A stretch of 64,000 nucleotides of DNA from Alphaproteobacteria bacterium. GTDB lineage: Bacteria; Pseudomonadota; Alphaproteobacteria; JAAXGF01. The translations under genes were made by a program, and so were the position numbers. The notes beneath the pieces are model-generated. The model was not told the DNA's origin. It saw only the letters and a program-made list of their open reading frames with translations, and did not search any database. The stretch covers positions 2,272,001 through 2,336,000 of the forward strand of contig CAUVXB020000002.1 in the NCBI GenBank assembly GCA_963555825.3, read 5' to 3'. Each line of letters opens with the position of its first letter. The stretch's first letter is position 1. Shown here one piece after another: positions 6,714 to 64,000 of the stretch.

Positions 6714-6998
6714 ATGTTCACCGTAGTCACCCCCACGACGAGTCTTAGCCTCGACGATCATTTCATAAAGCGTCCTGCGGCGACATTCTTTGTCACGGTC
6801 GAGGGCGGCGGCATGGCCGAACACGGGATCCTTACCGGCGATACCCTGATCGTCGACCGTTCGCGCACGCCGGGCGCTGGCTCCATCGTCATCGCGGTAA
6901 TCGAGGGCGAGTTGACCGCCCGTCCGTTCACCGCCCTTGATGGCGAGGAGGCCCACGTCTGGGGCGTCGTTGCCGGTGTGGTGCGGAGCCTGCCATGA
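6714..6998 (+). CDS. umuD: UmuD-like S24-fold protein, short, without catalytic Ser/Lys
   Basis: LDDHFIKRPAATFFVTVEGGGM..GILTGDTLIVDRS..GSIVIAVIEGELT..VWGVV aligns to the UmuD core; ATGA overlap with umuC. Confidence 0.8.
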   Translation: MFTVVTPTTSLSLDDHFIKRPAATFFVTVEGGGMAEHGILTGDTLIVDRSRTPGAGSIVIAVIEGELTARPFTALDGEEAHVWGVVAGVVRSLP

Positions 6999-8254
6999 GC
7001 ATCTACGGACTGGCCGACTGCAACAACTTCTTCGTCTCCTGCGAAAGGGTCTTCCGTCCCGCGCTCGAGGGCCGTCCCGCCGTGGTCCTGTCATCGAACG
7101 ACGGCTGCATCGTCGCGCGCAGCGACGAGGCGAAGGCGCTCGGCGTCAAGATGGCCCAGCCGGCGTTCCAGGCGAAAGACCTCATCGAGCGGCACAGCAT
7201 TGCCGTCATCAGCGGCAACCTCCAGTTCTATACCGACATGAGCAACCGAGTGATGCAGGTCTTCGGGGAACTGGTCCCGGCGGTAGAGAAATACTCGATC
7301 GACGAATGTTTTCTCGATCTCGCGGGAATACCGCAAGACCTCACGGCATTCTGCCAGGACCTGAAACGCACCGTGCGGCAATGGACCGGGCTGCCGATCA
7401 GCATCGGCATCGCCGAGACCAAGACCCTTGCCAAGATCGCCAACCGTCTCGCGAAGACCTCTGCCAAAACGGACGGCGTTCTCGATCTCACCGGTGAACG
7501 CTGGCGCGACAGGGCGCTGGCGTCAACTGAAGTCGGCGATGTCTGGGGCATCGGCAGGCAGTACGCCAAGAAACTCAACCGTAACGGTGTCATGACGGCC
7601 CTCGATCTGACGAGCCGTCCCGATGGCTGGATCCGCAAGGAGATGGGCGTCGGCGGGCTGAAGACGGTGCGGGAATTGCGCGGAGAGGACTGTATAGGCT
7701 TCGATGACATGCCCCAGCCCAAGCAGACGACGATGGTCTCGCGATCCTTCGGCACGGAAGTGCGCGACTACGACAAGTTGTCCAATGCGATCACCATGTT
7801 CGCGACCGATGCGGCGCGCTCCATTCGCACGGCCAATCTCGTCGCCTCGTCGACGAGCGTGTTCATCGAGACCAACCGTTTCGGCAAGAGCCCGCACCAT
7901 GCTCCGTCCCGCTCGGAGGCGCTGTCGCCCGCGACCAATAACACGAAGCATATCGTGCGAGCCGCGCTGGCCGCTCTGAAGCACATCTACCGCGAGGGGC
8001 TGGCGTACAAGCGCGCCGGGGTGATGCTGCTCGACCTCGTAGAAGCCGGCCGGGCGCCAATCTCGCTATTCGATACGCAGGATCCAAGGGACGACAAGCT
8101 GATCGAAGCGTTCGACGCCATCAACGACCGGCTGGGGCCGGGAGCGATCCAATTCGGCCCCGCGGCGCAGGGCGCGGCCTGGCGATCGAGCAGCGCCTTC
8201 CGCTCGCCCTTCTACACAACCCGTTGGGAAGACATCCCGAAGGTTAAAACCTGA
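6995..8254 (+). CDS. umuC: Y-family DNA polymerase (Pol V catalytic subunit, UmuC-like)
   Basis: DCNNFFVSCE, YSIDECFLD, KTLAKIAN, VWGIG, SRSFG and C-terminal SPFYTTRW motifs. Confidence 0.93.
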   Translation: MSIYGLADCNNFFVSCERVFRPALEGRPAVVLSSNDGCIVARSDEAKALGVKMAQPAFQAKDLIERHSIAVISGNLQFYTDMSNRVMQVFGELVPAVEKYSIDECFLDLAGIPQDLTAFCQDLKRTVRQWTGLPISIGIAETKTLAKIANRLAKTSAKTDGVLDLTGERWRDRALASTEVGDVWGIGRQYAKKLNRNGVMTALDLTSRPDGWIRKEMGVGGLKTVRELRGEDCIGFDDMPQPKQTTMVSRSFGTEVRDYDKLSNAITMFATDAARSIRTANLVASSTSVFIETNRFGKSPHHAPSRSEALSPATNNTKHIVRAALAALKHIYREGLAYKRAGVMLLDLVEAGRAPISLFDTQDPRDDKLIEAFDAINDRLGPGAIQFGPAAQGAAWRSSSAFRSPFYTTRWEDIPKVKT

Positions 8255-9036: not shown

Positions 9037-10631
9037 CGGAACCTGTCAACGACTTTGAGACAGTGACGATTACGATTTACTGAGCAGTTTCTCCTGTTGT
9101 GGGTGTCACAGGTGGGTTGATCCAGACGGCTTGGGGAAGGGGATCCGGTTGTGGGATCCCTCGAACGAAGCGTTCGGGATGACGGGTCCAGGCGGCTTGA
9201 AGGGTCCGCCCGCGCTGCTCCAGCACGCTCTGGGTTCGATTGTGATGCACGTCGTCCGGGGTGAGCATGGCGATCCCGCCATGGCGATGTTCGGTGTTGT
9301 ACCAAGGGAAGAACGTTCGGCAGAAGGCGATCGCGGCGGTGATGTCGTGGAAGCGGCCAGGGAAGCCGGGGTGGTACTTCAGGGTCTTGAACTGCGCCTC
9401 GGAGAAGGGGTTGTCGTCGGACACCTGAGGGCGGCTCAGTGAACGGGTCACGCCGAGGTCGGCGAGCAGTTGTGCGGTGCACTTGCTCGTCATCGGCGCG
9501 CCGCGGTCGGAGTGCAGGGTGAGCACCTGGGGCTGGACGCCCTGTTTATGGCAGGTCTCTTCGATGAGACGACCGGCCAGCGCCGAGTTCTCCCGGTCTG
9601 CGACCATCCAGCCGACCGCGTAGCGGCTGAAGATGTCGAGCACGACGTAGAGGTAGAAGTACGTCCACTTGGTCGGCCCCAACAGCTTGGTGATGTCCCA
9701 GGACCAGGTCTGGTTCGGCGCCGTGGCCACCAGCTCGGGCTTGGTGTACTGGGGATGCTCGCGCTGATTGCGCCGCTCTCGGACCGGCTGATCGGCGGCC
9801 AGGATCCGATACATCGTCCGCTCCGAGCACAGGTAATGGCCTTCGTCGAGCAGCGTCGCCACGACCTCCGCCGGCGCACGGTCGACGAAGCGCGGGCCGG
9901 CGAGCACATCGAGGATCTGCTCGCGCTCGGCTTCACACAGCGCCCGGGCGGGCGTTGGACGGGGCTGCTGGTGCCCGGGAGTTGACCTCTGACGACGGTA
10001 GAAGGTCGCCCGTGACACGCCCAGTGCTTGGCAGGCCGGCGCCACGCCGACCTGCGCCGCAAGCGGTTGGACCGCCATCAAGAGCGCGTTCCGTGTTCGA
10101 GGTTCAATCCCAGCAGCCCGGCAACTTTTCCCTGCACGTCCAGGATCGTGTGCGCGGTGTGCAACTCGTGCTCCAGGCGAGCCACTTGCGCCTCGAGCGC
10201 GCGCACCTTCGCATCCAGCGGGTTGCGTTCGGCCGGTTTCGCGCCGCGCTTCTTCGCGGCCAACTCCCGCAGCGAGCCCTTGCGCCGCGCCTTGCGCCAA
10301 GCCGTCAGATGCGAGCTGTACAACCCCTCGCGGCGAAGCAGGCGGCCCACCTCGCCGGGCTGTGTGCAGCGATCCGCCTCCTCCAGAATCCGCAGCCGAT
10401 ACTCTGCGGTGAACTGGCGCCGCTTCGGCTTGGCCACAACCTCCGGGTCCGGGGTCGGTCTGGCGCGGCCGGCCCTGGGGGCCTCGTCGCTACGCTCCTC
10501 GACCCCAAGGGCCGGAACGGAAACCTCATTCAATGTCATCGAGTCTCTCTCTGCGGTCATCGGTTTTCACCTCCACCGCCCTACAGAAATTCCGAAGGTT
10601 GCTGGTGTCTCAGTGATGTTGGCAGAGAGGG
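9037..10631 (-). mobile_element. IS3-family element (orfA 10078-10560, orfB 9077-about 10080)
   Basis: orfB has WSWDIT, LHSDRG, DNPFSEAQFKTLK; IRs TGTCAACGACTTTGAGACA / TGCCAACATCACTGAGACA lie 7 bp inside ends flanked by CGG/CGG. Confidence 0.9.
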
Positions 10632-10664: not shown

Positions 10665-13184
10665 ATGCACGACCCCGAAAGCGATATCCGCGACATCCCA
10701 CTATCTCAACTCGAACTCTCGCCCAGCAACGTGCGCAAGACGCCGGCCGACGCTTCGGCCTTCACCGAGCTCAAGGCCTCGATCGCCGCCCACGGGCTGC
10801 TCGAGAACCTGATTACCCGTTCCATGGGACCCGGCCCGGACGGTGCCGCGCGCTACGCGGTGATCGCCGGCGGTCGGCGGTTGGCTGCGATGCAGGCGCT
10901 GGCCGCCGAGTGCGCGCTGGACGAGGATCACCCCGTGCCCTGCCGCATGATCGGCGGTATCGTGGCGGCCGAAGAAGTTTCGCTGGCCGAGAACAGTGTC
11001 CGCGCCGCCATGCACCCGGCCGATCAGGTCGAGGCGTTCCGCCGCCTTGCCGATGCGGGCAGCACGGCGGCCGCCATCGCGGCGCGCTTCGGGATCTCGG
11101 AGCGCACCGTGGAGAAGCGGCTGAGGCTCGGCAACGCTGCACCGGTGCTGCTTGAGGCCTACCGGGCGGGCGAAATCGATCTGGACACATTGATGGCCTT
11201 CGCCGTCACCACGGATCAGGCGCGCCAGAGCGTGGTCTGGGAGACGGTGAGCCAGCAGGGCTACCGGCCCGGCGTCTGGCAGATCAAGCGCCTGCTGACC
11301 GAGGACCGGGTTCCGGCCACCTCCGCAATCGTGCATTTCGTCGGCCTTGAGGCTTACGAGGCGGCGGGCGGCAGGATCGACCGCGACCTGTTCGCCGAGG
11401 AGGACGAGCGAGGGATCTGGTTCGACGATCCTAATCTCTTGAACAAACTCGCCATGGACAGCCTCCAGGCGGCGGCGAGGGAACTGGAGACGCGCTGGAA
11501 ATGGGCCGAGGCGCGGCTAGACGTGGACTGGAGCGCCACCGCCGCTTTCGGGCGGGTACGCCCGCAACCGGCCGAGCCCACGGACGAAGAGAAGGCCGAG
11601 ATCGAACGCCTCCGGACCCGTAACGACGAACTCGCCAACATGGACGACGACGGCTGGACCGAAGAATTGGTGGAGGAAGCCGAGGGCAACGAAGAGCGGC
11701 TCGACGAGATCGAGGCCATGATCGAGGCCCGCGCGGTCTACCGGCGCGAGGATATCGCCATCGCCGGGTGCATCGCCACCGTCGGCAACGACGGCGAACT
11801 CAAACTGATCCAGGGCCTGGTCAGGCCCGAGGACATGCCCGCGCGCGAATCCAACGATGCGAACATGGCCGGACAAGACGATACCGGCGACGGGGAGAGC
11901 GCCAGTTCCAGCATCGAGGCTCCCACACTTGCGGCTCCCCTCGCTTCGCTCGGCGATGCGGAAGCCGAGGCGCGCAAGGAAGCGGGCGTCGGCATCGGCC
12001 TCGCCGACGACTTGCGGGCCATCCGCACGGCCATCATCAAGAGCCAGCTCGCCTGCGACTTCGAGGCGGCCTTCGATCTCCTGCTGCTCCAGCTTGCCCG
12101 GAGCGTGTTCACCACCGGCTACCATGATGACGCACTCGATATCAGGGCGGCCGAGACCCCGGACCGTCCGGCCATGCGGGTCAACGACGATGCGTTCGGC
12201 GACATCAATGTCGGTGAGAAGCACCTTGAGATCGACCGTGCCGCGCAAAAGCTCGACTGGGCCGGCCTGCCCGAAGCCGAGGCCTTCGCTGAACTGCGGG
12301 CGCTTCCCGAACGGGACAAAAGGACCCTGTTCGCGTCCTGTGTCGCGCGCACGCTGAAGGGTCAACTGGCGTTCGAACCCAAAGCCCGGCCCGAGGTCGA
12401 AGCGACCGTGGCCCGGCTCGACATCGATTTCGCCGCCGCTGTCCGAGGCAACCGCGATCAGGTCTGGACCGCCGATCTGCTGTGGTCGCGCTTGCGCAAG
12501 GACCGCATCCTCGCCATCGCCCGCGAGACGCTGGGCGAGACCTGGGCGCAAGCCGAGGCCAAGCGGAAGAAGGCCGACATTGCCAAGGCGATGCAGGACG
12601 CCTTCGCCCACGGCGGCGATGTGCCCGCCGGGGTCACGGCCGAGGGCCGCGCCGCGGCCATCGCCTGGACGCCGCCGGGCTTCCGCGCCTTCGATACGGG
12701 CGCCGTCAACGACAGTGCCTTGGCTGATGACGAGGGGACAACCGCCCCCGAACAGCAACCGTCGAAGATCGATATGCCATCGGTCGACGCACTGGAACAC
12801 AGCAGCGTCGATCCATCGGGCGCGGATGGGGAGGACCGGCAAGACGACGCTACGGAAGCCGATGCACTACCGGGCGATGATCCTGAACCCACTCCGATGG
12901 AGGCGCCGCGTCCCATGAACGTGAGCGTTCCTGGCATCGTCGAGAGCATCGATGCTCCCGCCGTGGCCGAACGCCGCGCCGCGGCAATCGCCTCGGCCAT
13001 GAACGCGGATGCAACGCTCCCGGTTGCGGCGTCCGCGCCGGAAGTGGCCGGCCCACCCGCCGCCGACGCGAGCGGCCATGGCGTGTCCGTAGAGCGGGAA
13101 CAGGTCCTGGCCCCGCCGCGCGGCAACGGCCACGACAACGGTGCGGAGTTGCTGGAGATACCGGCATTCCTGCGCCGCGGCTGA
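10665..13184 (+). CDS. Long ParB/RepB/Spo0J-family protein of the ICE/plasmid type, with an acidic tail ending LEIPAFLRRG
   Basis: IPLSQLELSPSNVRK, HGLLENL, VIAGGRRL (Box II), SLAEN, then an HTH; 839 aa; RBS GGAGA. Confidence 0.9.
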   Translation: MHDPESDIRDIPLSQLELSPSNVRKTPADASAFTELKASIAAHGLLENLITRSMGPGPDGAARYAVIAGGRRLAAMQALAAECALDEDHPVPCRMIGGIVAAEEVSLAENSVRAAMHPADQVEAFRRLADAGSTAAAIAARFGISERTVEKRLRLGNAAPVLLEAYRAGEIDLDTLMAFAVTTDQARQSVVWETVSQQGYRPGVWQIKRLLTEDRVPATSAIVHFVGLEAYEAAGGRIDRDLFAEEDERGIWFDDPNLLNKLAMDSLQAAARELETRWKWAEARLDVDWSATAAFGRVRPQPAEPTDEEKAEIERLRTRNDELANMDDDGWTEELVEEAEGNEERLDEIEAMIEARAVYRREDIAIAGCIATVGNDGELKLIQGLVRPEDMPARESNDANMAGQDDTGDGESASSSIEAPTLAAPLASLGDAEAEARKEAGVGIGLADDLRAIRTAIIKSQLACDFEAAFDLLLLQLARSVFTTGYHDDALDIRAAETPDRPAMRVNDDAFGDINVGEKHLEIDRAAQKLDWAGLPEAEAFAELRALPERDKRTLFASCVARTLKGQLAFEPKARPEVEATVARLDIDFAAAVRGNRDQVWTADLLWSRLRKDRILAIARETLGETWAQAEAKRKKADIAKAMQDAFAHGGDVPAGVTAEGRAAAIAWTPPGFRAFDTGAVNDSALADDEGTTAPEQQPSKIDMPSVDALEHSSVDPSGADGEDRQDDATEADALPGDDPEPTPMEAPRPMNVSVPGIVESIDAPAVAERRAAAIASAMNADATLPVAASAPEVAGPPAADASGHGVSVEREQVLAPPRGNGHDNGAELLEIPAFLRRG

Positions 13185-13209
13185 ACCACCGCGTTCTTCT
13201 CTCACGACA

Positions 13210-13245
13210 ACGCCCCGCCGGCTTCAGTCCGGCGGGGCGTCTTTC
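13210..13245 (+). terminator. Hairpin downstream of the parB-like gene
   Basis: 12-bp perfect stem ACGCCCCGCCGG/CCGGCGGGGCGT followed by CTTT; weak U-tract. Confidence 0.6.
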
Positions 13246-13275
13246 GTTCCCGTATCGACAACCAGGAGATTCCCA

Positions 13276-14620
13276 ATGTCTACCGTACAGAATGCCGTTA
13301 CGGCCGAGGCCGGCGATAGTTCCGCCACGATCCGCGCCCGCGTCGGCGACAGCGCCATTGACAAGGTAACCCGGCTGTTTTCGGCTAGCCTTGCCGATAT
13401 TTTCACCGAGACGCTGCAAAACTCACGCCGTGGCGGTGCCAACCGCGTCGCCGCAACCATCGAGCAGGACGGCGACACCACCCGCGTTACTCTCATCGAC
13501 GGTGGCGCCGGGATCGCCGATCCTGCGGTCCTGCTGACCTTCGGCGAGAGCGGCTGGAAGGCCGGCATCGCCGAGGCGGAGGATCCCGCCGGGTTCGGGC
13601 TTCTCGCTCTCTCGCGCCGGGGCTGCACGCTGCGCTGGCGCCGCCCCGGCGGGGACCCAAGCCCAGGCTACCGCTTGACGCTGGAGCCTGTTCACTTTCT
13701 CGGCCGCGATGCGGCCCATGTCGTCCTGGACGACAGCGCCCCCTGGCCCCATGGCACTGCGGTCACCTTCGAAGCGTCCGAGGCGCCTCACTCCGTCCGC
13801 GCTTTCCTTGAGTCCGCCGCCCGCCATTATCCATTGCCGGTCACCATCGGCGGAGAGACCGTCGAACGCCGCGCCTTCCTGGACGGCGCGCTCCATGTGG
13901 AACCATGGAAGGGCCTCGTGTTCGGCATCTTCAAGGACAGCCATGCGGGCTACCGCATTCCCGACGTCAACTTTCACGGCCTGACCCTGCCGGTGCGCCT
14001 GCCGCAGATCGACACGGTGGAAGGCGGCACCTGGTCGGCGCGCGCCGACATCGACTCCTGCCCCGATCTGGAGCTGGTCCTGCCCGCGAGAAAGGAAGCG
14101 GTGGAGACCCCGTTTCTGGAAGAGATGCGCGAGGCCGCGGGGCTTGCCGTCTACCGCGCCATGGCCCAGGCCGTTCCGGCCCCGCGGGTTGCCTGGACCG
14201 ACTGGCACAAGGCGAAAGAGGCCGGGATCGAGATTCCCGAGCCACCGGCCGAGCTACGCCTCTGGCATCCCACCATCGCCGACACCGACTATTGGGACGA
14301 GCGGTCCGCCTTCGCAGGCGTAGGCACCGACGCCCTGGTGATGCAGGCCGACCCCGAGCCGCCCGAGGCCCAGGCGCTTCATCGCGGCCTCGGCCTGACC
14401 GAGCTTCAGGACGGATCGGAACGAACGCTCCAGTTGTTCGCCCCCGAGCCGCGTTTCGACGGTTATCCCTGGTACGACGCGCTCGCGCGCGTCACCGGCA
14501 TCAAGACCCTTATTACCGTGGATGGCGCCGTCCGTTCGCTGGATTACTTCACCAACCGGGAAAACGGCGGCGAGCCGGAACGGCCCGAGACCATCGTGAT
14601 GCACCTGAATGTCCTGCATC
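13276..14620 (+). pseudogene. GHKL (HATPase_c-type) ATP-binding protein, C-terminus cut by IS30
   Basis: RBS AGGAG; ETLQNSRR, DGGAGI and AGFGLL Bergerat-fold motifs; the frame runs into the IS30 end. Confidence 0.75.
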
Positions 14621-15305
14621 CGCTGCCGCCTCAACCGGTCGATGCAACACAAGCGTTGAATCTCTCTGCCGGTGTTTCAAACCCCAAGGTTTTGCGTGGC
14701 CGTTCGTTGAGCTGACGCGCCACTTTGTTCAGATGAGCCTGCGAGTATACCGACACGTCGGTGCCTTTGGGGAAGTACTGTCTGAGCAGGCCATTAGTGT
14801 TCTCATTGGAACCCCGTTGCCACGGGCTTTGCGGATCACAGAAGTAGACATCGATGTCGGTCGCCAGGCTGAACCGGCGATGGTCCGCGAGTTCCTTGCC
14901 CCGGTCCCAGGTCAGGGACTTGTAGAGCTCGGTCGGCAGCTTCCTCGCCTGCCTGATGAGCGCGGATACCACTGTCAGGGTTTCCTTGTTGGCAACCTTT
15001 ACCAACATCACGTAACGCGTTTGACGTTCGACCAGGGTCGCGATGTAGCTGTTCTTCGATCCCGACAACAGATCACCTTCCCAGTGACCCGGCACCGCCC
15101 GATCTTCGACCGAGGCCGGGCGCTCACGGATCGACACCATGTCCGTGATTTGACCCCGGCCAACGCCTTTCCGGCGCGCCTCTTTCGAGCGTCGGATCGT
15201 GCGCTTCGACCGAAGATGCTGAAGCAGCTCCTTCTTAAGCACACCGCGGGCTTGAACAAACAAACTGCGATAGATCGTCTCGTGAGACACCTGATAAGAC
15301 CCAGC
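14621..15305 (-). mobile_element. IS30-family remnant, 5' part removed at the IS6 boundary
   Basis: SHETIY, GHWEGD, TWDRGKE, SPWQRGSNENTNGLLRQYFPK; stop at 14631. Right boundary approximate. Confidence 0.9.
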
Positions 15306-40025: not shown

Positions 40026-40529
40026 ATGAGGCTTCCGATCGCGATCGCATCCGCCATGGTTGCGATCTTCTTAACCACCGGCGCGGCCCAGGCGCAAACC
40101 GCTAGCGCCAGTCTGATGAACGCCGACGGCCAGAGCGTCGGTTTGGTCGGCCTGAAGCAGACGCCGAATGGCGTGCTGCTATCGGCCAGTTTGTGGAACC
40201 TGGCGCCCGGCGCGCACGCGTTTCACGTCCACGCCGTCGGCAAATGCGACGCACCCTTCAAGTCGGCCGGCGGGCACTTCAACCCGAAGGGCAAGAAGCA
40301 CGGCATCACCCGCAAGGGCGGCATGCATGCTGGCGACATGCCGAACGTTCACGTCCATGCTAACGGCACGCTGACAATCGAGGTTCTGAACAAGAGGCTG
40401 GCGCTCGACGACGCGCTGTTCGACGCCGACGGCGCGGCCATCGTCATGCACGCCGGCGCCGACGACTACAAGTCCGACCCGGCCGGCGCCGCGGGGCCGC
40501 GCATCGCCTGTGGGGTCATCGAACGCTGA
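40026..40529 (+). CDS. sodC: Periplasmic Cu/Zn superoxide dismutase
   Basis: Signal peptide; HAFHVH, GKC..SAGGHFNP, HAGDMPN, MHAGADD, GPRIACGVI. Confidence 0.96.
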   Translation: MRLPIAIASAMVAIFLTTGAAQAQTASASLMNADGQSVGLVGLKQTPNGVLLSASLWNLAPGAHAFHVHAVGKCDAPFKSAGGHFNPKGKKHGITRKGGMHAGDMPNVHVHANGTLTIEVLNKRLALDDALFDADGAAIVMHAGADDYKSDPAGAAGPRIACGVIER

Positions 40530-53985: not shown

Positions 53986-56437
53986 TCAGTTCCCGCCGAG
54001 AACCCTCATCAGGCTGTCCTTCAGACCCGGGAAGTTCCCCGACCGGATGGAAGGCGGTGTGTTGATCTCAAGGATTGCCAGTTTCTCGGCCGGGCTCGCG
54101 CGGACATACGTTTCGGTGATCTTGATGTCCGCATGCCCGAGCCACAACGAGACCTTCCGTATATCGTCGGTGGCATGCAGGATCGTCATTGCCGTCGAGT
54201 GACGGAGCACATGCGGGGTCACCCGCTTGGTGTCGATCGACGGGACCTTCTGGGCCGCCGTGGCGACATGCTGCTTGAGGATGTATGCGAAGCCGTCCGT
54301 GCTCATTGCCCGCCCCCGTGCGTTGAGGAACAGGTAGCGGTTGTTGACGGCCGGCCGGACGTCGAGCCACTCATTGAGGACGGTTTTCGTTTCCCTCCAC
54401 AGCGGCAGTTCGCGCTCGCGCCGCCCCTTGCCCAGGACGCGGATAGTCTCAAGCTGGGAACCCGACAGGCTGTCGAGGGTGAGTCCGGTCAGTTCCGACA
54501 CCCGCAGCCCGGCGGCGTAGCACAGGTGCAGCATCGCGCGGTCGCGCAAGCCTGGCGATGTCCCTATCTCTGTTGAAATTCGTGGGGCAGGCGTCGCTGG
54601 TTGATGATGCTATGCTGCCTTCATGATGGTTTCAATGGCACTGTCGGCCTGAGCCTTTCTCAAGTGTTCCTGGAGAGCATTTCGGAGGATGGGCAGCTGG
54701 CGATAGGCCTTGAGGCGACGGAAGGTTTTCTGGGCCTCCAGCAGGCCGGCGGCGGTCCATCTGAGCGCCATCTCGGCGTGTCTCCAGCGTTTGACGTTGC
54801 GGGTGACCTGGCGCACCGTGCCGAGCGCGTTCTCGACGATGTTGGTGCAGGCGAGCGAGCGCCGGAGTTCGTGCGGCAGGCCGAGGCGGATGACGGTGAG
54901 GATCTCGTCCAGCCCCTCCAGGATGCTGCCCGAGACGCCCGGTTCCTCATGCTCCAGACGCCGGACCAGGTTGCGCAAGAGCCGCTCGGCCTTGTTTGCG
55001 TCGTCCTGGTCCCAGGCCTGACGGAGCGCCTTCTTGACGCTCGCGTGCAAATGTTGGGGCAGGCGCTCGATGATGTTACGGCCCTTGTGGACCTGGCAGC
55101 GCTGGATGGCGGCGGCCACACCGAAGGTGTTTCGGATCGCTTTGCTGAGTGCCTTCGCGCCATCGACGATGAACAGCCGCGGCAGTGTCGGATCGAGCCC
55201 CCTGGCGAGGAGATTGTCGATCAAGGCCTGGACGACGACCGTGTTCTCCGTCGCCCCCTCGACCACGGCCAGGACATGCTTGTCGCCGTTGCCATCGACG
55301 CCGATCGCCGCCATCAGGACATGGTCGCCGACATGCAGACCGTCGATCTGGATGACTAGCAGGTCGAGTTCCGAGAGATCCGAGGCGAGCCAGGCCTTCA
55401 TCTTCTTGCGTGACAGCGCCACAAAGCGCCGGGAAACGGCCGACTTCGAGGTGCCGTCGCCACGCGCTTTCGCCAGGTCGCCCTCGGGCAGACGGACCGC
55501 GCGGTGGTACTTGCGGGTCGACACGTTCAGGACCATCAGGTTGAGCGCCCACTCGAGCAGCAGGTTGCCATCGCGTAGCGCCTGCCAACTCTCCAAGCTC
55601 ACCTCTTTGCCCGCCCGGTCACGAACCCGTGGCCGGGCCACCTTCACTTTGCCGCCGTGGTAGCCGATCTCGCTATGTGTCCTGCCCCAGCGATAACCTC
55701 GACGGTCCCCATGGCGGCGATGTCGGGCCCCGCACACGGTCGTGGCGTCCTCCTCCATCATCTCGGCCAAGGCCTCGACCCCGGCCAGAAGACAAAACCG
55801 ATCCACGCTGAGATGGACTGCGTCCATCGCGTCCGCCAGCGGCGGCATAGGAATCGAGGGGGCAAGGGCTTTCGGGCGGCTGGAACTACGGATATTCTTT
55901 CCCATGGTGTCGTTCTCCCTTTTGGGTTTGCAGCACCCGGAGCCTAACGGCTCCAGGAGAGCGACACCTACCTCAACTTTTCAACATCGACCGGGACATC
56001 CCCCGCAAGCCTGCCACCGTTGCGGTATCCGGAGCATCCAGGATCGCCTGCATCTCGGTCCGGTCGAGCCAGTCGATCAGGGGCTTGTCGGCGCGCTTCT
56101 GCGGGATGGCGCGCACCTGCAATGCGTGGTCGAGGCAGCTCGGGACACGGTATTCCACGTACCGGAAGAAGGACTTGATGGCGGCGAGGCGGATATTGCG
56201 CGTGCCGATGCTGTTGTTGCGAACCTTCTCCAGGGATTCGAGGAAGGCCAGCAGGAGCGCCACCGTGAAGTGCTCGATTTTCAAAGCACAGGGGCGGACT
56301 TTGATTTGCTCCGCCGCGTAGAGGACGAGCAGCCGGAAGCACTCGGTATAGCTCTGCACGGTGTGTCGGCTGAAGCGCCGCTCGTTGGGCAGGTGCTCCT
56401 GCAGGAAGGCGGTGAGATGGGGGGCAAGATCAGTCAT
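53986..56437 (-). pseudogene. RIT tyrosine recombinase C, split by IS256
   Basis: MTDLAPHLTAF..AGL-RDRAML, GLRVSEL, GKGRRER, TPHVLRHS, WLGHAD..TETY. Confidence 0.92.
54554..56003 (-). mobile_element. IS256 type B isoform (transposase 54610-55905)
   Basis: Ends GGCGATGTCCC / GGGACATCCCC; 9-bp duplication CGCAAGCCT; close relative of 5107-6556. Confidence 0.95.
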
Positions 56438-57368
56438 CGGACCCTCCATTCGCGTGAGCCTGCTGCGCGGCCTCGGCGATGCCGCGCAGCAGGACCGGGG
56501 TCGATTCCAGATACCAATAGGTGCTCGAGACCCCGACATGGCCGAGGTAGGTGGCGAGGGCCAATATGTGACGGTCCGGGTTGACGCCGGGAGCCAGGTT
56601 CTCAAGTGACCGGACGGCGAAAGAATGCCGTAGCGAGTGCGGGGTCGGTCCTCGTGCCGCGTCGGGTTCCCGGATTCCCGCTTGCTCCGCGATTTTGCGG
56701 AAGACGTGATCCGCATACTGTCTATGTGGGCACCGGCCGGTGGCGATCACGAACAGATGCCGGTCTGGAGTTTTCTCCTTGAGTCGTGCATCCAGATAGC
56801 GGTTCAGCGCATCCCAGGTGGTCGGGTGCAGCGCGACCATCCTCGTCTTGCCGAACTTCGTGTCTCGGATGACGAGGCCGTCAGGCGTGATGTCGTCCAG
56901 CGTCAATGCGAGGGCTTCGCCGATGCGCAGGCCGGTTGCGGCGATGAGACCGAACAGGTGGTGCCAGGTCAGCGGGGCGATGGTGCCGACGGGCCGCATG
57001 GACAGTGCCGCTGTCAGCAGTTTCTGGATGTCCGGGACCGATACCAGGTACGGCTGCGGTCTCCTTTTGGACAGATGACCTAGAGCATCACGGGGCGGCA
57101 CCTCGTGACGTGGGTCCTCGGCATGCAGCCAGCAGGCCATGGCATGGACCGCTCGCAGCTTGCTCACTCGCTCGTTTCGTGACGCCGCCGCCGATGCCGA
57201 TGCCCATTCGAGGGCTGTCTCGTAACGGATGAATGTTTCGTCACGGCCCTCGGCGAACCGCGCAAAGCTCCGCAGTGTCGTCCCGCTCCGCGTGAACCGG
57301 TAACCGACCCTTTGCTTCATCGCGACAAAGCGCTCGATATGCTCTGTGATGGTGGCTTTCTCCGTCAT
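56430..57368 (-). CDS. RIT tyrosine recombinase B
   Basis: TGLRIGEAL, TKFGKTR, HSLRHSFAV, YLGH..STYWYL. Confidence 0.93.
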   Translation of the reverse strand: MTEKATITEHIERFVAMKQRVGYRFTRSGTTLRSFARFAEGRDETFIRYETALEWASASAAASRNERVSKLRAVHAMACWLHAEDPRHEVPPRDALGHLSKRRPQPYLVSVPDIQKLLTAALSMRPVGTIAPLTWHHLFGLIAATGLRIGEALALTLDDITPDGLVIRDTKFGKTRMVALHPTTWDALNRYLDARLKEKTPDRHLFVIATGRCPHRQYADHVFRKIAEQAGIREPDAARGPTPHSLRHSFAVRSLENLAPGVNPDRHILALATYLGHVGVSSTYWYLESTPVLLRGIAEAAQQAHANGGSDD

Positions 57369-58936
57369 GCCTCGATCCCTCCGATCCAGGGCTGGGCGAT
57401 CTCCTGCAACATGACCGCATCGGTCTTGGCGTAGATCATGGTGGTGTCGGGGGAGGCGTGCCGGAGCAGCGATTGGATGACATCGAGCGTTGCTCCCGAC
57501 CTGAGCAACGCTGTCGCCTGGGAGTGGCGGAACGCATGCGCACCGCGACCGGCGAAGGTCTTGACCCCGACGCGGTCGAGTGCGCGTTCCGCCACAGCAC
57601 TGACGGTGCTTGAGTCGGTGAACGGTCGACAGGGTGCGTTGACGCAGAGGAACACCTTCTCCTCATCCACCCTTGGCCGCACCGTCGCGATATAGGCATG
57701 GAGCGCGTCGCCGGCATCCTGGGGCAGCGGCAGAGCCGTCTGCCGTCGTGACTTTCCCGAGACACGGATCTCGGCCCTGTCCCAGTCGATATCGCCGAGG
57801 CGCAGGGCAACGATGTCCCCTGCCCGCAGTGCAAGTCGTGCCAGAAGCAGCAGGATCGCCCGGTCGCGTACGCCCATAGGGTCATCACCGCAGGAGGCGA
57901 TGGTGCGCGCGACATCGTCGGCCGGGATGTACCGTGGCAAGGTTGACAACCGCCACTGAGGCACCGTCGGCACGGCCCCGACCAGCGCTGCCGCGATGCT
58001 GCCTTCCGATACCAGGAACCGAAGGTACATGCGCATCACGGTTGTCAGCCTCTGGGCGTAGCTTCGCGACCAGGGCTCCATATGCTCGAACAGCACTCGC
58101 CGGATCAGTGCCGCGCCATAACCCCCGGGATCATCTCCAAGGTGAGGCAGCATCTCTGCGATCAAACGGACATGCTGGCGTATAGTCCCCGGGCAGATGC
58201 CGCGATGGCGTTCAAGCCACACGGCGTACCTCTCAAGGCGAGCGGACGGCGCCTTCTCGCCCGGGAACGGCTCCAGGGGTTCAATCCGCCCGATTGCGAC
58301 GAGATGCTTCAGGAAGCCGCGGACTTCGGTTCGGTAAGCGGTTCCGGGTGACTGCGTTTCGTGGCCGCAGAACATCCCGGGGATTGAGCAGACGAACTGC
58401 CTGTTCCGGAAGCGTGCATAAATATCCGGTGTCAGATCGCGCAGGCGGATCCGTGAGAGGTGGAGCCAGACAATGAGACCGGCGCAGCCGTAACGGTACA
58501 GTTTGATGGTTGCGGTCGCATATCTACCGCGGCGCAAGCCCGCGAGGAACGCGTCCAGCAACTGGAAATTGTCGTCCAGCTCACCCGGCGTCTCGATCCG
58601 CCCCGTCCGCTCAAGGAAGCGGATGAACGTCATGAGTTTGGGCGACGTGCGGCCCTTGCGCCAGCGGCGAGGCCGGACAGGTGCGGACGATGCGGCACAA
58701 CGGCAATCGTGCCGCAGAAAGCGGTCGATGACTGTGGCGTCGACTGTTTTGAGCGCGATACCGGTGAGCTCAAGCCAGATCAGGAAGTGACGGGCGGCAT
58801 ACCGGTACTTGGGGAACTGACCTTCAGCAATCTCGCCGCGACGACGAAGATCGTCAATGAACGCGAAAATGCTTGCGTCGAAGCCGGCCAGTGCTGTGGT
58901 CCCCAGCAGGGGCCGGCGGTTGGGTGTCGAAGACAT
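57365..58936 (-). CDS. RIT tyrosine recombinase A (long N-terminus)
   Basis: RDRAILLLLARLALRAGD, GKSRR, HAFRHS, LRHASPDTTMIYAK. Confidence 0.93.
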   Translation of the reverse strand: MSSTPNRRPLLGTTALAGFDASIFAFIDDLRRRGEIAEGQFPKYRYAARHFLIWLELTGIALKTVDATVIDRFLRHDCRCAASSAPVRPRRWRKGRTSPKLMTFIRFLERTGRIETPGELDDNFQLLDAFLAGLRRGRYATATIKLYRYGCAGLIVWLHLSRIRLRDLTPDIYARFRNRQFVCSIPGMFCGHETQSPGTAYRTEVRGFLKHLVAIGRIEPLEPFPGEKAPSARLERYAVWLERHRGICPGTIRQHVRLIAEMLPHLGDDPGGYGAALIRRVLFEHMEPWSRSYAQRLTTVMRMYLRFLVSEGSIAAALVGAVPTVPQWRLSTLPRYIPADDVARTIASCGDDPMGVRDRAILLLLARLALRAGDIVALRLGDIDWDRAEIRVSGKSRRQTALPLPQDAGDALHAYIATVRPRVDEEKVFLCVNAPCRPFTDSSTVSAVAERALDRVGVKTFAGRGAHAFRHSQATALLRSGATLDVIQSLLRHASPDTTMIYAKTDAVMLQEIAQPWIGGIEA

Positions 58937-59745: not shown

Positions 59746-59985
59746 CGTCCATCTCCCCGCTGTTTCCAGAATTCGCAATCAGGCCCGAATTCTGCCATTG
59801 GCCCGACAGCCGGTCAATTCCGCCATTCGAACGGCCATTTCAAGTGTGCCGCCACGTTCCAAGGCAGGGCCAAATTCCCCTTGATCTCCGATTATGCAGT
59901 CTATATCCTCTCGCGAAACGTAACGAGTAATAATAACCTTCTGACACCTCTGCACAGAATGTGCACGTTAAAACCTAAGCAAAAC

Positions 59986-62900
59986 TAGTGTCCCGATTCC
60001 GAAGTTCGCATGATTTTCGCCTGCTGTTCAGCGATTTCGATTGTTCGGAGGCAGAAGCGCTGGATGGCGCCGAGGATGTCATCGGCGGATTTGGTCCATT
60101 TGAAGGGTTTGGGGTTCTGGTTTGTCGTGTCGATGTAGTCGAGGATGGTGCGCTCCAACTCCTTGGTGGAGCGATGGACGCCGCGCCTGATCTGCTTGTC
60201 GGTCAGCAGCCCGAACCAGCGCTCGACCTGGTTCAGCCAGGAGGCGCTGGTGGGTGTGAAATGGGCCTGCCAGCGCGGCCGTTTGGCGAACCAGTCGCGG
60301 ATCGCCTTGGTCTTGTGGGTCCCGTAGTTGTCCATGACGATGTGGATGTCGAGATCAGCAGGGACGTTCGCCTCGACGAGGTCGAGGAATTTGCGGAACT
60401 CTCGGGCCCGATGGCGCGGGAAACATTTGCCGATGATCTCTCCCGTGGCGATGTCGAGGGCCGCGAAGAGAGAGGTCGTGCCGTGGCGCTTGTAGTCGTG
60501 GCTGCGCCGCTCCGCCTGCCCGGGGCGCATCGGCAAGAGGGGCTGGGAACGGTCCAGGGCCTGGATCTGGCTCTTTTCGTCGACACAGAGAACCAGGGCA
60601 CGATCCGGCGGCGCCAAATACAGACCGACGATGTCGCGGACCTTCTCCACGAAGAAGGGATCGCTCGACAGCTTGAAGGTCTCCGAGCGATGCGGCTGCA
60701 AGCCGAAGGCCCGCCAGATGCGATGAATGGTCGAGGGCGCGTGGCCGCTCGCCCGCGCCATCGAGCGAAGGCTCCAATGGGTCGCGTCCGGCGGCGTCTC
60801 TTCCAGCGTCAGCCGGACCGCTTCCGCGATGGCGTCATCGCCGATTTGACGCGGCGCGCCGGGGCGGGGTTCGTCGTACAGACCGTCGAGGCCCTCCGCC
60901 GCATAGCGGCGACGCCACTTGCCCACGGTGTCCGCGCTCGCCTCGAGACGAACGGCGATCTCCTTGTTCTCCAACCCTTCCGCCGCCGCCAAGACGATCC
61001 GAGCCCGCCGCGCAAGCCCCTGCGACGTCTTGCGACGACGAGACAGCGCCTCCAATTCGGCGCGCTCGTCATCGCTCAAAGAGATCGTCACCGCCACTCT
61101 CGCCATCAATCGCGCCTCCTAAAAACAAATAGAGACATAATCATATCAATTTATCGATCAGGACACTAGTGTCCCGATTCCGAAGTTCGCATGATTTTCG
61201 TGCTGTTCAGCGATTTCGATTGTTCGGAGGCAGAAGCGCTGGATGGCGCCGAGGATGTCATCGGCGGATTTGGTCCATTTGAAGGGTTTGGGGTTCTGGT
61301 TTGTCGTGTCGATGTAGTCGAGGATGGTGCGCTCCAACTCCTTGGTGGAGCGATGGACGCCGCGCCTGATCTGCTTGTCGGTCAGCAGCCCGAACCAGCG
61401 CTCGACCTGGTTCAGCCAGGAGGCGCTGGTGGGTGTGAAATGGGCCTGCCAGCGCGGCCGTTTGGCGAACCAGTCGCGGATCGCCTTGGTCTTGTGGGTC
61501 CCGTAGTTGTCCATGACGATGTGGATGTCGAGATCAGCAGGGACGTTCGCCTCGACGAGGTCGAGGAATTTGCGGAACTCTCGGGCCCGATGGCGCGGGA
61601 AACATTTGCCGATGATCTCTCCCGTGGCGATGTCGAGGGCCGCGAAGAGAGAGGTCGTGCCGTGGCGCTTGTAGTCGTGGCTGCGCCGCTCCGCCTGCCC
61701 GGGGCGCATCGGCAAGAGGGGCTGGGAACGGTCCAGGGCCTGGATCTGGCTCTTTTCGTCGACACAGAGAACCAGGGCACGATCCGGCGGCGCCAAATAC
61801 AGACCGACGATGTCGCGGACCTTCTCCACGAAGAAGGGATCGCTCGACAGCTTGAAGGTCTCCGAGCGATGCGGCTGCAAGCCGAAGGCCCGCCAGATGC
61901 GATGAATGGTCGAGGGCGCGTGGCCGCTCGCCCGCGCCATCGAGCGAAGGCTCCAATGGGTCGCGTCCGGCGGCGTCTCTTCCAGCGTCAGCCGGACCGC
62001 TTCCGCGATGGCGTCATCGCCGATTTGACGCGGCGCGCCGGGGCGGGGTTCGTCGTACAGACCGTCGAGGCCCTCCGCCGCATAGCGGCGACGCCACTTG
62101 CCCACGGTGTCCGCGCTCGCCTCGAGACGAACGGCGATCTCCTTGTTCTCCAACCCTTCCGCCGCCGCCAAGACGATCCGAGCCCGCCGCGCAAGCCCCT
62201 GCGACGTCTTGCGACGACGAGACAGCGCCTCCAATTCGGCGCGCTCGTCATCGCTCAAAGAGATCGTCACCGCCACTCTCGCCATCAATCGCGCCTCCTA
62301 AAAACAAATAGAGACATAATCATATCAATTTATCGATCAGGACACTAGTGTCCCGATTCCGAAGTTCGCATGATTTTCGCCTGCTGTTCAGCGATTTCGA
62401 TTGTTCGGAGGCAGAAGCGCTGGATGGCGCCGAGGATGTCATCGGCGGATTTGGTCCATTTGAAGGGTTTGGGGTTCTGGTTTGTCGTGTCGATGTAGTC
62501 GAGGATGGTGCGCTCCAACTCCTTGGTGGAGCGATGGACGCCGCGCCTGATCTGCTTGTCGGTCAGCAGCCCGAACCAGCGCTCGACCTGGTTCAGCCAG
62601 GAGGCGCTGGTGGGTGTGAAATGGGCCTGCCAGCGCGGCCGTTTGGCGAACCAGTCGCGGATCGCCTTGGTCTTGTGGGTCCCGTAGTTGTCCATGACGA
62701 TGTGGATGTCGAGATCAGCAGGGACGTTCGCCTCGACGAGGTCGAGGAATTTGCGGAACTCTCGGGCCCGATGGCGCGGGAAACATTTGCCGATGATCTC
62801 TCCCGTGGCGATGTCGAGGGCCGCGAAGAGAGAGGTCGTGCCGTGGCGCTTGTAGTCGTGGCTGCGCCGCTCCGCCTGCCCGGGGCGCATCGGCAAGAGG

Positions 62901-64000
62901 GGCTGGGAACGGTCCAGGGCCTGGATCTGGCTCTTTTCGTCGACACAGAGAACCAGGGCACGATCCGGCGGCGCCAAATACAGACCGACGATGTCGCGGA
63001 CCTTCTCCACGAAGAAGGGATCGCTCGACAGCTTGAAGGTCTCCGAGCGATGCGGCTGCAAGCCGAAGGCCCGCCAGATGCGATGAATGGTCGAGGGCGC
63101 GTGGCCGCTCGCCCGCGCCATCGAGCGAAGGCTCCAATGGGTCGCGTCCGGCGGCGTCTCTTCCAGCGTCAGCCGGACCGCTTCCGCGATGGCGTCATCG
63201 CCGATTTGACGCGGCGCGCCGGGGCGGGGTTCGTCGTACAGACCGTCGAGGCCCTCCGCCGCATAGCGGCGACGCCACTTGCCCACGGTGTCCGCGCTCG
63301 CCTCGAGACGAACGGCGATCTCCTTGTTCTCCAACCCTTCCGCCGCCGCCAAGACGATCCGAGCCCGCCGCGCAAGCCCCTGCGACGTCTTGCGACGACG
63401 AGACAGCGCCTCCAATTCGGCGCGCTCGTCATCGCTCAAAGAGATCGTCACCGCCACTCTCGCCATCAATCGCGCCTCCTAAAAACAAATAGAGACATAA
63501 TCATATCAATTTATCGATCAGGACACTAGTGTCCCGATTCCGAAGTTCGCATGATTTTCGCCTGCTGTTCAGCGATTTCGATTGTTCGGAGGCAGAAGCG
63601 CTGGATGGCGCCGAGGATGTCATCGGCGGATTTGGTCCATTTGAAGGGTTTGGGGTTCTGGTTTGTCGTGTCGATGTAGTCGAGGATGGTGCGCTCCAAC
63701 TCCTTGGTGGAGCGATGGACGCCGCGCCTGATCTGCTTGTCGGTCAGCAGCCCGAACCAGCGCTCGACCTGGTTCAGCCAGGAGGCGCTGGTGGGTGTGA
63801 AATGGGCCTGCCAGCGCGGCCGTTTGGCGAACCAGTCGCGGATCGCCTTGGTCTTGTGGGTCCCGTAGTTGTCCATGACGATGTGGATGTCGAGATCAGC
63901 AGGGACGTTCGCCTCGACGAGGTCGAGGAATTTGCGGAACTCTCGGGCCCGATGGCGCGGGAAACATTTGCCGATGATCTCTCCCGTGGCGATGTCGAGG
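59986..64000 (-). mobile_element. Head-to-tail array of at least 4 IS630 type C elements (single-ORF transposases 59985-61109, 61158-62288, 62345-63469, and a partial from 63526)
   Basis: Periods 1181, 1179 and 1181 bp; junctions GGACAC-TA-GTGTCC; CVDEKSQ, MDNYGTH, SWLNQVE motifs; copy 2 has a 2-bp deletion near 61200. Confidence 0.95.

Follow-up and report, generated by a model that had tools for sequence, protein, structure and literature searches.

The Z-ring is read by membrane anchors, spatial regulators, and proteases, and the hub for this is the C-terminal peptide of FtsZ. Here, we ask why a peptide of this kind stands at the end of a different protein, a ParB-like protein encoded in a 64,000-nucleotide stretch of an alphaproteobacterial genome (contig CAUVXB020000002.1, positions 2,272,001 to 2,336,000; the whole stretch is called the window, and nucleotide positions are counted from its first letter). 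A preliminary description of the window had placed a look-alike of the FtsZ peptide (LEIPAFLRRG plus stop), behind a long acidic linker, at 13152-13184, and we reproduced this site exactly: codons 13152-13181 read LEIPAFLRRG, and the stop codon lies at 13182-13184. One long open reading frame (ORF) lies at window positions 10665-13184 on the forward strand, and its last codons read NGAELLEIPAFLRRG, followed by the stop (Table 1). Together with the leucine that precedes it, the motif forms the 10-mer LLEIPAFLRR (residues 829-838, nucleotides 13149-13178). Mimicry of the FtsZ tail by the ParB of a mobile element is the best-supported, and as yet unproven, reading of this peptide.

The C-terminal peptide and its likeness to FtsZ

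The host genome (6.04 Mb in two contigs) contains a single ftsZ gene, with ftsA before it, and the encoded FtsZ ends in LLDIPAFLRRQTN (the same terminus is also given as DDLLDIPAFLRRQTN and as PEDDLLDIPAFLRRQTN). LLEIPAFLRR is identical to this end at nine of ten positions. In G418, a genome of the same class and another family code, several gene copies with 85-90% identity end in LLEIPAFLRRG, and the FtsZ of that genome, which ends in LLEIPAFLRRQAN (also given as EEDLLEIPAFLRRQAN), is identical to LLEIPAFLRR at all ten positions; the likeness to the FtsZ tail that had been claimed is therefore a 10-residue identity with a genuine alphaproteobacterial FtsZ peptide. Further, LEIPAFLRR is the FtsZ end at 9 of the 30 FtsZ loci that we compared (30 genomes). 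The tail fits the consensus [DE]-[IL]-P-x-F-L-[RK]-[RK] at the extreme C terminus behind a disordered linker, and its residues Ile-832 and Leu-836 are the equivalents of I374 and L378 in Escherichia coli FtsZ. According to the available part of PMC4117426, the E. coli tail DYLDIPAFLRKQAD is read by ZipA, FtsA, MinC, ZapD, ClpX, and SlmA; I374 and L378 have a critical role in the binding of ZipA, FtsA, MinC, and SlmA; and a 14-residue tail peptide alone suffices for binding, but only weakly, so that avidity from polymers matters.

A chance resemblance without function would be suggested by the shortness of the motif and by the LPAFL that the ancestral tail of the family already had. Against it stands how rarely the motif is expected. 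The pattern [DE][ILV]P[AST]FLR[RK] has five matches in the six-frame translation of the host genome (12.08 million codons), compared with 0.096 expected per genome from composition for this strict 8-mer class, and all five belong either to FtsZ or to one of the four paralogues of the ParB-like gene; for the exact 10-mer, the expectation is 1.3e-5 per genome. We conclude that the FtsZ likeness is far beyond chance.

A degenerate DNA pattern for [DE]IPAF[LF][RS][RS] was then scanned over 401 sampled alphaproteobacterial genomes (this tally takes in two genomes marked as unpublished, G632 and G449, with one match each; apart from G449 in the helicase tally below, no other claim rests on these two). 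The pattern was present in 257 genomes, and its reversed control gave three matches altogether. In this sample, the motif is almost always single-copy (ftsZ), and only eight genomes had more than one match. The extra matches in G000, G418, G550, G585, and G687 (family codes f1, f96, and f228) are tails of ParB-like proteins, with four to six motif-bearing copies per genome in four of these five genomes and one in G687. Those in G475 and G578 are internal and apparently out-of-frame chance matches, and that in G761 is the end of a DEAD-box helicase (DDDIPAFLRR). Otherwise, the strict motif is almost exclusive to FtsZ.

Conservation of the peptide on a variable linker

The preliminary description had proposed that an alignment of homologous C termini should show a conserved motif behind a varying linker. 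In a set made up of the query and its 120 best database relatives (80-93% identity), this is the pattern seen. The motif is kept in 119 of 121 sequences, 108 of them with the exact LEIPAFLRR end and eleven more with one difference, and the two sequences without it look truncated or frameshifted. Identity to the query is 0.85-0.99 in the body of the protein and 0.64-0.75, with many insertions and deletions, in the linker (residues 681-806), which thus changes both in its sequence and in its length; over the 121 sequences, positions 830-838 of the motif stay at an identity of 0.94-0.98. This profile points to selection on the motif and not on the leash that carries it. If the resemblance were accidental, the motif would have to evolve at the rate of the linker, which the profile contradicts, and it would not be expected to persist behind a drifting linker in 119 of 121 homologues and in genomes with three different family codes. 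We regard chance as highly improbable. When the codons of the motif were compared by eye with those of host ftsZ, 7 of 30 bases differed, 6 of them synonymously; this rules out recent capture of the ftsZ 3' end as DNA and indicates that the likeness is kept at the protein level.

The linker had been described as about 150 residues rich in Asp, Glu, Pro, and Ala. This description holds because of the low confidence of the structural model in this region (see below) and because of its composition: residues 688-829 are 51% D/E/P/A, carry a net charge of -22, and contain no F, W, or Y. Across the family, tail length ranges from 27 to 179 residues. The picture can be refined in that, among close homologues, two conserved islands lie within the otherwise variable tail, at residues 761-780 and 807-828. 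The first (window 12945-13004) reads SIDAPAVAERRAAAIASAMN and is predicted to be helical at 770-777; the second (window 13083-13148), immediately before the motif, reads VSVEREQVLAPPRGNGHDN.

Domains and predicted fold of the protein

An AlphaFold2 model was built from a 39-row alignment of diverse family members (alignment A1). Its predicted local distance difference test score (pLDDT) is high for residues 1-687, below 50 for residues 688-829, and 65 on average across the ten C-terminal residues, of which 834-836 form a helical turn. Pfam ParB_N matches residues 7-79 with 27.4 bits against a cut-off of 26.3, and the helix-turn-helix (HTH) region (residues 117-200) gives several weak Pfam matches, among them HTH_ParB at 19 bits, below its cut-off of 22.6. 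The HTH is covered structurally, by Spo0J over residues 29-209 and by the KorB DNA-binding domain (1r71, Z 8.7 over residues 103-216, VIA-align). Foldseek matched ParB, Noc, Spo0J, and KorB at E 1e-8, VIA-align matched Spo0J (1vz0) with Z 12.2 over residues 29-209 and PadC (6ryk) with Z 11.0, and the structural matches to these five proteins are confined to residues 1-217. Searches with the whole model by Foldseek and VIA-align turned up no specific PDB match to the body (residues 201-687) beyond a helical hairpin at 304-357. NCBIfam gave only sub-threshold N-terminal matches (PRTRC ParB, PRK13832, ParB, and Noc); PRTRC_parB scored 67.9 bits against a cut-off of 278.6 and PRK13832 47.9 against 640, with only about 200 N-terminal residues matching.

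Two nucleotide-binding motifs are present, G69-G70-R71-R72 (GxRR) and E109-N110-x-x-R113 (ENxxR). In the 39 aligned family members, Gly-69, Arg-72, and Asn-110 are invariant, as are Trp-668 and Gly-672 of the anchor that closes the body, and Arg-71, Glu-109, and Arg-113 are at least 90% conserved. We take GxRR to be the arginine patch, or box II, and ENxxR to be box III of the ParB nucleotide-binding motifs. These motif names are those of the ParB literature, PMC12704722 among it. Judged by its fold, HTH, and motifs, the protein most probably belongs to the ParB-CTPase clamp type of the ParB/Srx superfamily, and it is predicted to bind and hydrolyze CTP.

Tail types across the family

This is a very large family, with 13218 cluster representatives at E<=0.001; of 8000 scored candidates, 4964 were homologues at the same threshold. 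The 150 best representatives, together with two plasmid proteins and ORFs at genome loci, were the source of an alignment of 147 sequences, and the 140 that span most of the body were sorted by their tails. Short forms, which end soon past a W-x-P-x-G-[FM] anchor, account for 53 sequences. In 19 sequences (type 1), the motif is followed by a basic residue and lies within 6 residues of the end; in 46 (type 2), the motif occurs in another setting; 9 end in AA(E) only; and 13 are long without the motif, 8 of these being Arg/Pro-rich and frameshift-like. The type 1 logo is E-[LVI]-P-A-F-L-R-R-x-x-COOH, and all 19 sequences, the query clade included, have a variable disordered linker, the peptide, and then 0-5 residues to the C terminus. 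This architecture parallels that of FtsZ, in which a variable disordered linker also precedes the terminal peptide. The type 2 logo is [ED]-L-P-A-F-L-[TQNS]-D-[DA], and in many cases some 20 acidic residues and then a terminal hAAE (h, hydrophobic) come after it. Most sampled alphaproteobacterial members (L007-L035) have such a two-part tail, with [DE]LP[AEDP]FL, about 20 acidic residues, and a near-invariant h-A-A-E-COOH; some retain only the AAE end, and ...NLADAA closes the short form of the F-plasmid type. The AAE at the terminus may serve as another docking or signal motif, separate from the first.

In a FastTree phylogeny of 132 rows (the 8 frameshift-like rows were left out), the query clade comprises 18 rows with a Shimodaira-Hasegawa-like (SH-like) support of 98: 12 of type 1, 1 of type 2, 3 classed as short, at least two of which are fragments, and 2 without the motif. 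This clade is nested among short forms, and the FtsZ-identical tail is a derived state of this single clade. Motif-bearing tails in general are spread over several clades, which indicates that the tail is a module gained or lost repeatedly.

Proposed function of the tail and alternatives

If the tail mimics that of FtsZ, the N-terminal CTPase fold and the HTH would, as their fold and motifs suggest, load the protein onto element DNA as a clamp, and the short linear motif at the C terminus, on a disordered acidic leash of about 140 residues, would reproduce the FtsZ C-terminal peptide and dock onto the host readers of that peptide. An identical peptide on a long leash should fit the same pockets as FtsZ's own, and ParB molecules gathered on DNA would present it multivalently, like an FtsZ filament. 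The outcome could be competition with FtsZ for its membrane anchor, which would pause or bias cytokinesis while the element becomes established, and/or the holding of element DNA at the membrane or the division site. Through a functional mimic of this kind, complexes of element DNA and ParB would be linked to FtsA or other readers, with competition against FtsZ or tethering of the DNA as the effect; we put its likelihood at a little short of an even chance. The preliminary description had likewise suggested tethering to the divisome, a delay of division, or a degron. A farther-reaching proposal is that a DNA-anchored decoy of the FtsZ filament captures FtsA and other readers and pauses cytokinesis or pins the incoming or excised element to the membrane or division site until it is established and that, more broadly, [DE]-h-P-A-F-L is a code shared by FtsZ, RhlE-type helicases, and mobile elements; we consider this speculative and rather unlikely. 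FtsA is the sole confirmed reader in the host; MinC, ZipA, and ZapD have no Pfam-detectable match in the host, and ClpX is assumed to be present. A complex prediction with host FtsA (16 rows) and tail residues 785-839 scored 0.29 against a mark of 0.32, with controls not folded, and weighs on neither side of the question of binding.

Several observations weigh against mimicry of FtsZ. First, the short forms of the family, the F-plasmid protein included, carry no such tail, which makes the tail an accessory module. Second, remote long-tailed members keep only [DE]-L-P-A-F-L, followed by T, Q, N, or S and acidic residues; they lack the basic pair typical of FtsZ and often end in a second terminal motif, hAAE-COOH. 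Third, no covariation was seen at the variable x position between the ParB tails and the FtsZ peptides of the same genomes. This comparison used FtsZ ends from 30 genomes and ParB-like ORFs at 29 loci, with the wrong ORF at a few; FtsZ has A, S, or R at x and the ParB tails A, E, D, or P, without evident matching, and the comparison is uninformative because nearly all hosts share IPAFLRR. Fourth, the window copy lies within an island heavily disrupted by insertion sequences (IS) and may no longer be mobile. Finally, the core of the motif recurs in RhlE-like helicases. We examined 28 orthologue loci (L115-L143, the G449 locus being left out) from 60 other sampled alphaproteobacterial genomes, and 20 of them have [ILVM]PxF[LMI] within the last 45 residues. 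The hPAFL core is thus used outside division, which weakens any argument from the core alone to a division partner. The consensus of the helicase tails is G(F/L)GDH(V/L/M)PAF(L/M)x(R/K)P on a basic disordered tail, and some read FGDHLPAFLRRP; the helicase tail alone, used as a homology query, gave 5 matches. The host has an RhlE-like DEAD-box helicase of its own (C1:415227-416636, reverse strand; NCBIfam RhlE at 439 bits, below the equivalog cut-off), which ends in ...GMGDHVPAFMQRPVKRDG. The G761 helicase that ends in DDDIPAFLRR lies at locus L094.

Because hPAF[LM] occurs both in remote relatives and in RhlE-like helicases, the partner could be a hub other than the divisome. Under such an explanation, [DEH]-h-P-A-F-[LM] would be a general alphaproteobacterial docking motif with a reader outside division, which could be a hub common to RhlE-like helicases or an element-encoded partner, e.g. 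a conjugative coupling protein, and the FtsZ likeness would be convergence on a "sticky" peptide. The helicase tails, including the one that ends in DDDIPAFLRR, speak for this, and so does the occurrence of hPx[FW][LMI] near the end in 65 of the 87 sequences (among the 140) that are not short forms, most of them without FtsZ-like basic residues. The tail also persists beside differing downstream neighbors, a GHKL-like gene here and DUF3768 on a Sulfitobacter plasmid. On the other hand, the match of the query clade to FtsZ runs over ten positions in a row and takes in the LL and RR on either side, which are missing from the general motif; its identity to FtsZ goes well past the hydrophobic core, and the strict form is otherwise almost exclusive to FtsZ. 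We consider a general docking motif possible, but on the doubtful side.

A borrowed degron, read by ClpX (or ClpA) like the FtsZ end and giving a short-lived protein that acts briefly after entry or excision, would account for the same peptide. In the available part of PMC8138137, the last 18 residues of E. coli FtsZ, which contain DIPAFLRKQAD, are listed as a ClpXP degron. A long disordered leash beside a terminal tag would be a geometry favorable for engagement by an unfoldase, and an early, transient role fits a leading-region gene. However, the residues past FLRR differ (G here and QTN or QAN in FtsZ), remote relatives end in acidic residues or AAE, unlike known C-motifs of ClpX, and identity at 10 of 10 positions to the FtsA-contacting part is not required of a degron. 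We think this improbable, and mimicry of the FtsZ tail remains the reading that we prefer.

Relationship to leading-region ParB2

The protein had been called a mobile-element ParB, and we assign the family to the leading-region ParB2 type because it is homologous to the gene that lies between ssb and psiB on plasmids. In tblastn against plasmids, at least 5000 records were matched, mostly enterobacterial conjugative plasmids, and homologues on E. coli, Klebsiella, and Salmonella plasmids are annotated ParB/RepB/Spo0J. Identity to the E. coli plasmid genes between ssb and psiB is about 36% over residues 10-329. One such homologue that we inspected, on an E. coli IncF plasmid, is a tail-less short form of 652 amino acids. 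According to the available part of PMC8406263, parB2 belongs to a conserved leading-region cluster, ssb-parB2-psiB-psiA; the ParB2 of pED208 enters recipients through the type IV secretion system (T4SS); and deletion of parB2 in pED208 altered neither transfer nor the SOS response. Translocation is known for this ParB2 only. A role of the tail as secretion signal is opposed by the translocation of this tail-less homologue, for which the tail is thus not needed, and this counts against the general docking motif considered above.

The protein and the leading-region ParB2 of F-like plasmids and pED208 have homologous N-terminal and body domains, a mobile context, and an SSB gene nearby. They differ in that the F-like proteins are short (652 amino acids, ending past the W-x-P-G anchor), without an acidic leash or FtsZ-like peptide, and in that psiB and psiA are not neighbors here; the whole host genome (99.3% complete) contains no match to PsiB (PF06290). 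A longer relative (723 amino acids) on a conjugative Sulfitobacter plasmid ends in ...SSLPAFLSGDAA and is followed by genes for DUF3768, DUF6878, ParDE, a strawberry-notch helicase, and a toprim protein.

Genomic setting of the gene

We take the gene to be a leading-region-type ParB gene of a decayed, IS-riddled conjugative element. As shown in Table 1, umuDC-like genes lie upstream, and the available part of PMC11541004 states that umuDC-like operons often bound the leading-region anti-defense islands of plasmids. The same order of umuDC and then the ParB-like gene is found at C2:45975-50656 around a better preserved paralogue (copy A, C2:48116-50653), where the IS3 element is missing from the corresponding site. 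Copy A is arranged as umuC, the ParB-like gene, a GHKL-like gene (596 amino acids), AAA_5 (648 amino acids), and a DUF2201 metallopeptidase/VWA gene, then a split strawberry-notch helicase gene, SSB, and YAcAr. In the window, homology to copy A stops at about 14623, and SSB, a YAcAr/SLOG protein, and an MT-A70 methylase are encoded farther along among many transposases.

Table 1. Features of the window around the ParB-like gene
Feature	Position	Strand	Basis
FtsZ C-terminal-peptide look-alike, LLEIPAFLRRG and stop	13149..13184	+	Sequence, homologues, genome pattern scans
ParB-like ORF, 839 amino acids	10665..13184	+	ORF list and translation
Predicted ParB CTPase-type N domain (residues 7-116) and HTH (117-200)	10683..11264	+	Pfam, Foldseek, VIA-align
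Family-specific folded body, residues 201-687, closing with the conserved W-T-P-P-G-F anchor (668-673)	11265..12725	+	High pLDDT
Disordered acidic linker, residues 688-828	12726..13148	+	pLDDT <50, composition
umuD-like gene (Peptidase_S24), upstream	6714..6998	+	Pfam PF00717, E 5e-12
umuC-like Y-family polymerase gene	6995..8254	+	Pfam IMS, IMS_C, DUF4113
IS3-family insertion sequence with two ORFs, separating umuC from the ParB-like gene	9077..10560	-	Pfam rve, rve_3, HTH_Tnp_1
GHKL-ATPase-like gene, downstream, cut by an IS near 14623	13276..14715	+	Homology to copy A

The downstream set of a GHKL-ATPase-like (596 amino acids), an AAA_5/MoxR-like (648 amino acids), and a DUF2201 metallopeptidase-VWA (450 amino acids) protein, seen at window 13276-14715 and in the paralogue at L004:5748-12112, may be an uncharacterized module of the early region of the element. 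The GHKL-like copy in the window has no Pfam match, and the intact 596-residue paralogue matches HATPase_c weakly (E 0.0012). PADLOC gave no matches for the ParB-like protein and the three downstream neighbors, nor did NCBIfam for the neighbors, so that an assignment to defense or anti-defense is unsupported by either. No ParA was found among the ORFs scanned around the window gene and copy A; the adjacent ParA ATPase gene of a canonical ParABS system is thus lacking. In the IS-disrupted window, no oriT, relaxase, or T4SS was identified.

The host has four copies of the gene with 83-97% identity: C2:48116-50653 (+), C2:720114-722630 (-), C1:1841979-1843715 (-), and window 10665-13184. Of these, the copy on C1 is broken: a fragment of its N-terminal part stands apart at C1:1844181-1844564 and contains a stop. 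The host genome looks IS-rich, as do G418, G550, and G585, with their four to six motif-bearing copies each. Transposases of the IS3, IS21, IS66, IS110, IS256/Mutator, IS5-like, and IS6 families occur across the window, and three tandem, near-identical IS630-like transposase ORFs (374-376 amino acids, DDE_3 and HTH) lie at 59985-63469 (-). Truncated phage-type integrase genes are found at 53986-58936 and a Cu/Zn superoxide dismutase gene at 40026-40529.

Contigs of three metatranscriptome libraries (X19, X20, and X21) overlie parts of the ORF at a low depth of 2-12 and with 90-99% likeness, none of them over the motif; they hint at expression at most weakly, given that contigs provide neither strand nor level, that they may stem from DNA carry-over, and that paralogues confound their placement. 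Among public sequencing runs, 20 of the 24 listed (8 coded studies) contain part of window 10665-13300, and 8 hold at least half of the sampled words, which indicates that close relatives recur in several independent data sets.

Comparison with known systems and significance

With FtsZ itself, the tail shares the sequence LL[ED]IPAFLRR, its place at the extreme C terminus (1-5 residues from the end), and the variable disordered linker. It differs in that the carrier is a DNA-binding ParB-family protein and not a tubulin-like GTPase, in that the linker is strongly acidic, and in that G follows FLRR, whereas QAN or QTN follows it in FtsZ; binding to the partners is predicted for the ParB-like protein. 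The acidic C-terminal tail of SSB, DDDIPF-COOH, is likewise a disordered acidic tail with a short hydrophobic docking motif for many partners, but its IPF needs a free terminal Phe carboxylate, whereas IPAFLRR has residues beyond it. Readings of the peptide as an SSB-like tail or as a beta-clamp-binding motif are disfavored, with 2-3 positions fitting compared with 10 for FtsZ.

Two known DNA-bound regulators couple the position of DNA to division, and the mechanism that we propose would also join a DNA-bound protein to the division apparatus. One is Noc, which belongs to the ParB family and, as a CTP-dependent clamp, attaches DNA to the membrane (PMC12704722, in the part available); the other is SlmA, which is activated by DNA and binds to the tail of FtsZ (PMC4117426, likewise). 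Noc uses an N-terminal membrane helix of its own, and SlmA binds the FtsZ tail, whereas the ParB-like protein would imitate FtsZ and bind its partners; further, Noc and SlmA are chromosomal housekeeping proteins, and the ParB-like protein is encoded by an element. Phage and prophage division inhibitors, e.g. lambda Kil, are examples of a mobile element disturbing Z-ring function (PMC3961180, in the part available). Inhibitors of the Kil type are small proteins that act on FtsZ or via ZipA, as opposed to the peptide copy seen here, and we found no description of a phage or prophage division inhibitor that copies the FtsZ docking peptide.

The preliminary description knew of no report of such a tail, and we likewise found none, either of FtsZ-like tails in the ParB family or in plasmid proteins or of the tail motif of RhlE-like helicases, in the full-text literature searched (subscription journals and supplements lie outside it). 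In the available part of PMC12704722, a survey of ParB-CTPase fusions, FtsZ appears only within a cited title, and among the matching passages listed from the polyvalent-protein paper PMC5512222, FtsZ is unmentioned.

The proposed function combines two known kinds of activity, that of ParB-family effectors and that of mobile elements that interfere with division; the new part would be docking through a copied FtsZ peptide. Attack on FtsZ itself is a known means by which mobile elements block division. Mimicry, if functional, would give a plasmid or an integrative and conjugative element a new way of fitting the timing of host division to its transfer, or of positioning its DNA, and it would provide a natural competitive inhibitor of the contacts between FtsZ and its partners. 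The tails of RhlE-like helicases suggest that the docking code is in wider use than recognized. For the widespread and unexplained leading-region ParB2 family, functional mimicry would be a first functional handle.

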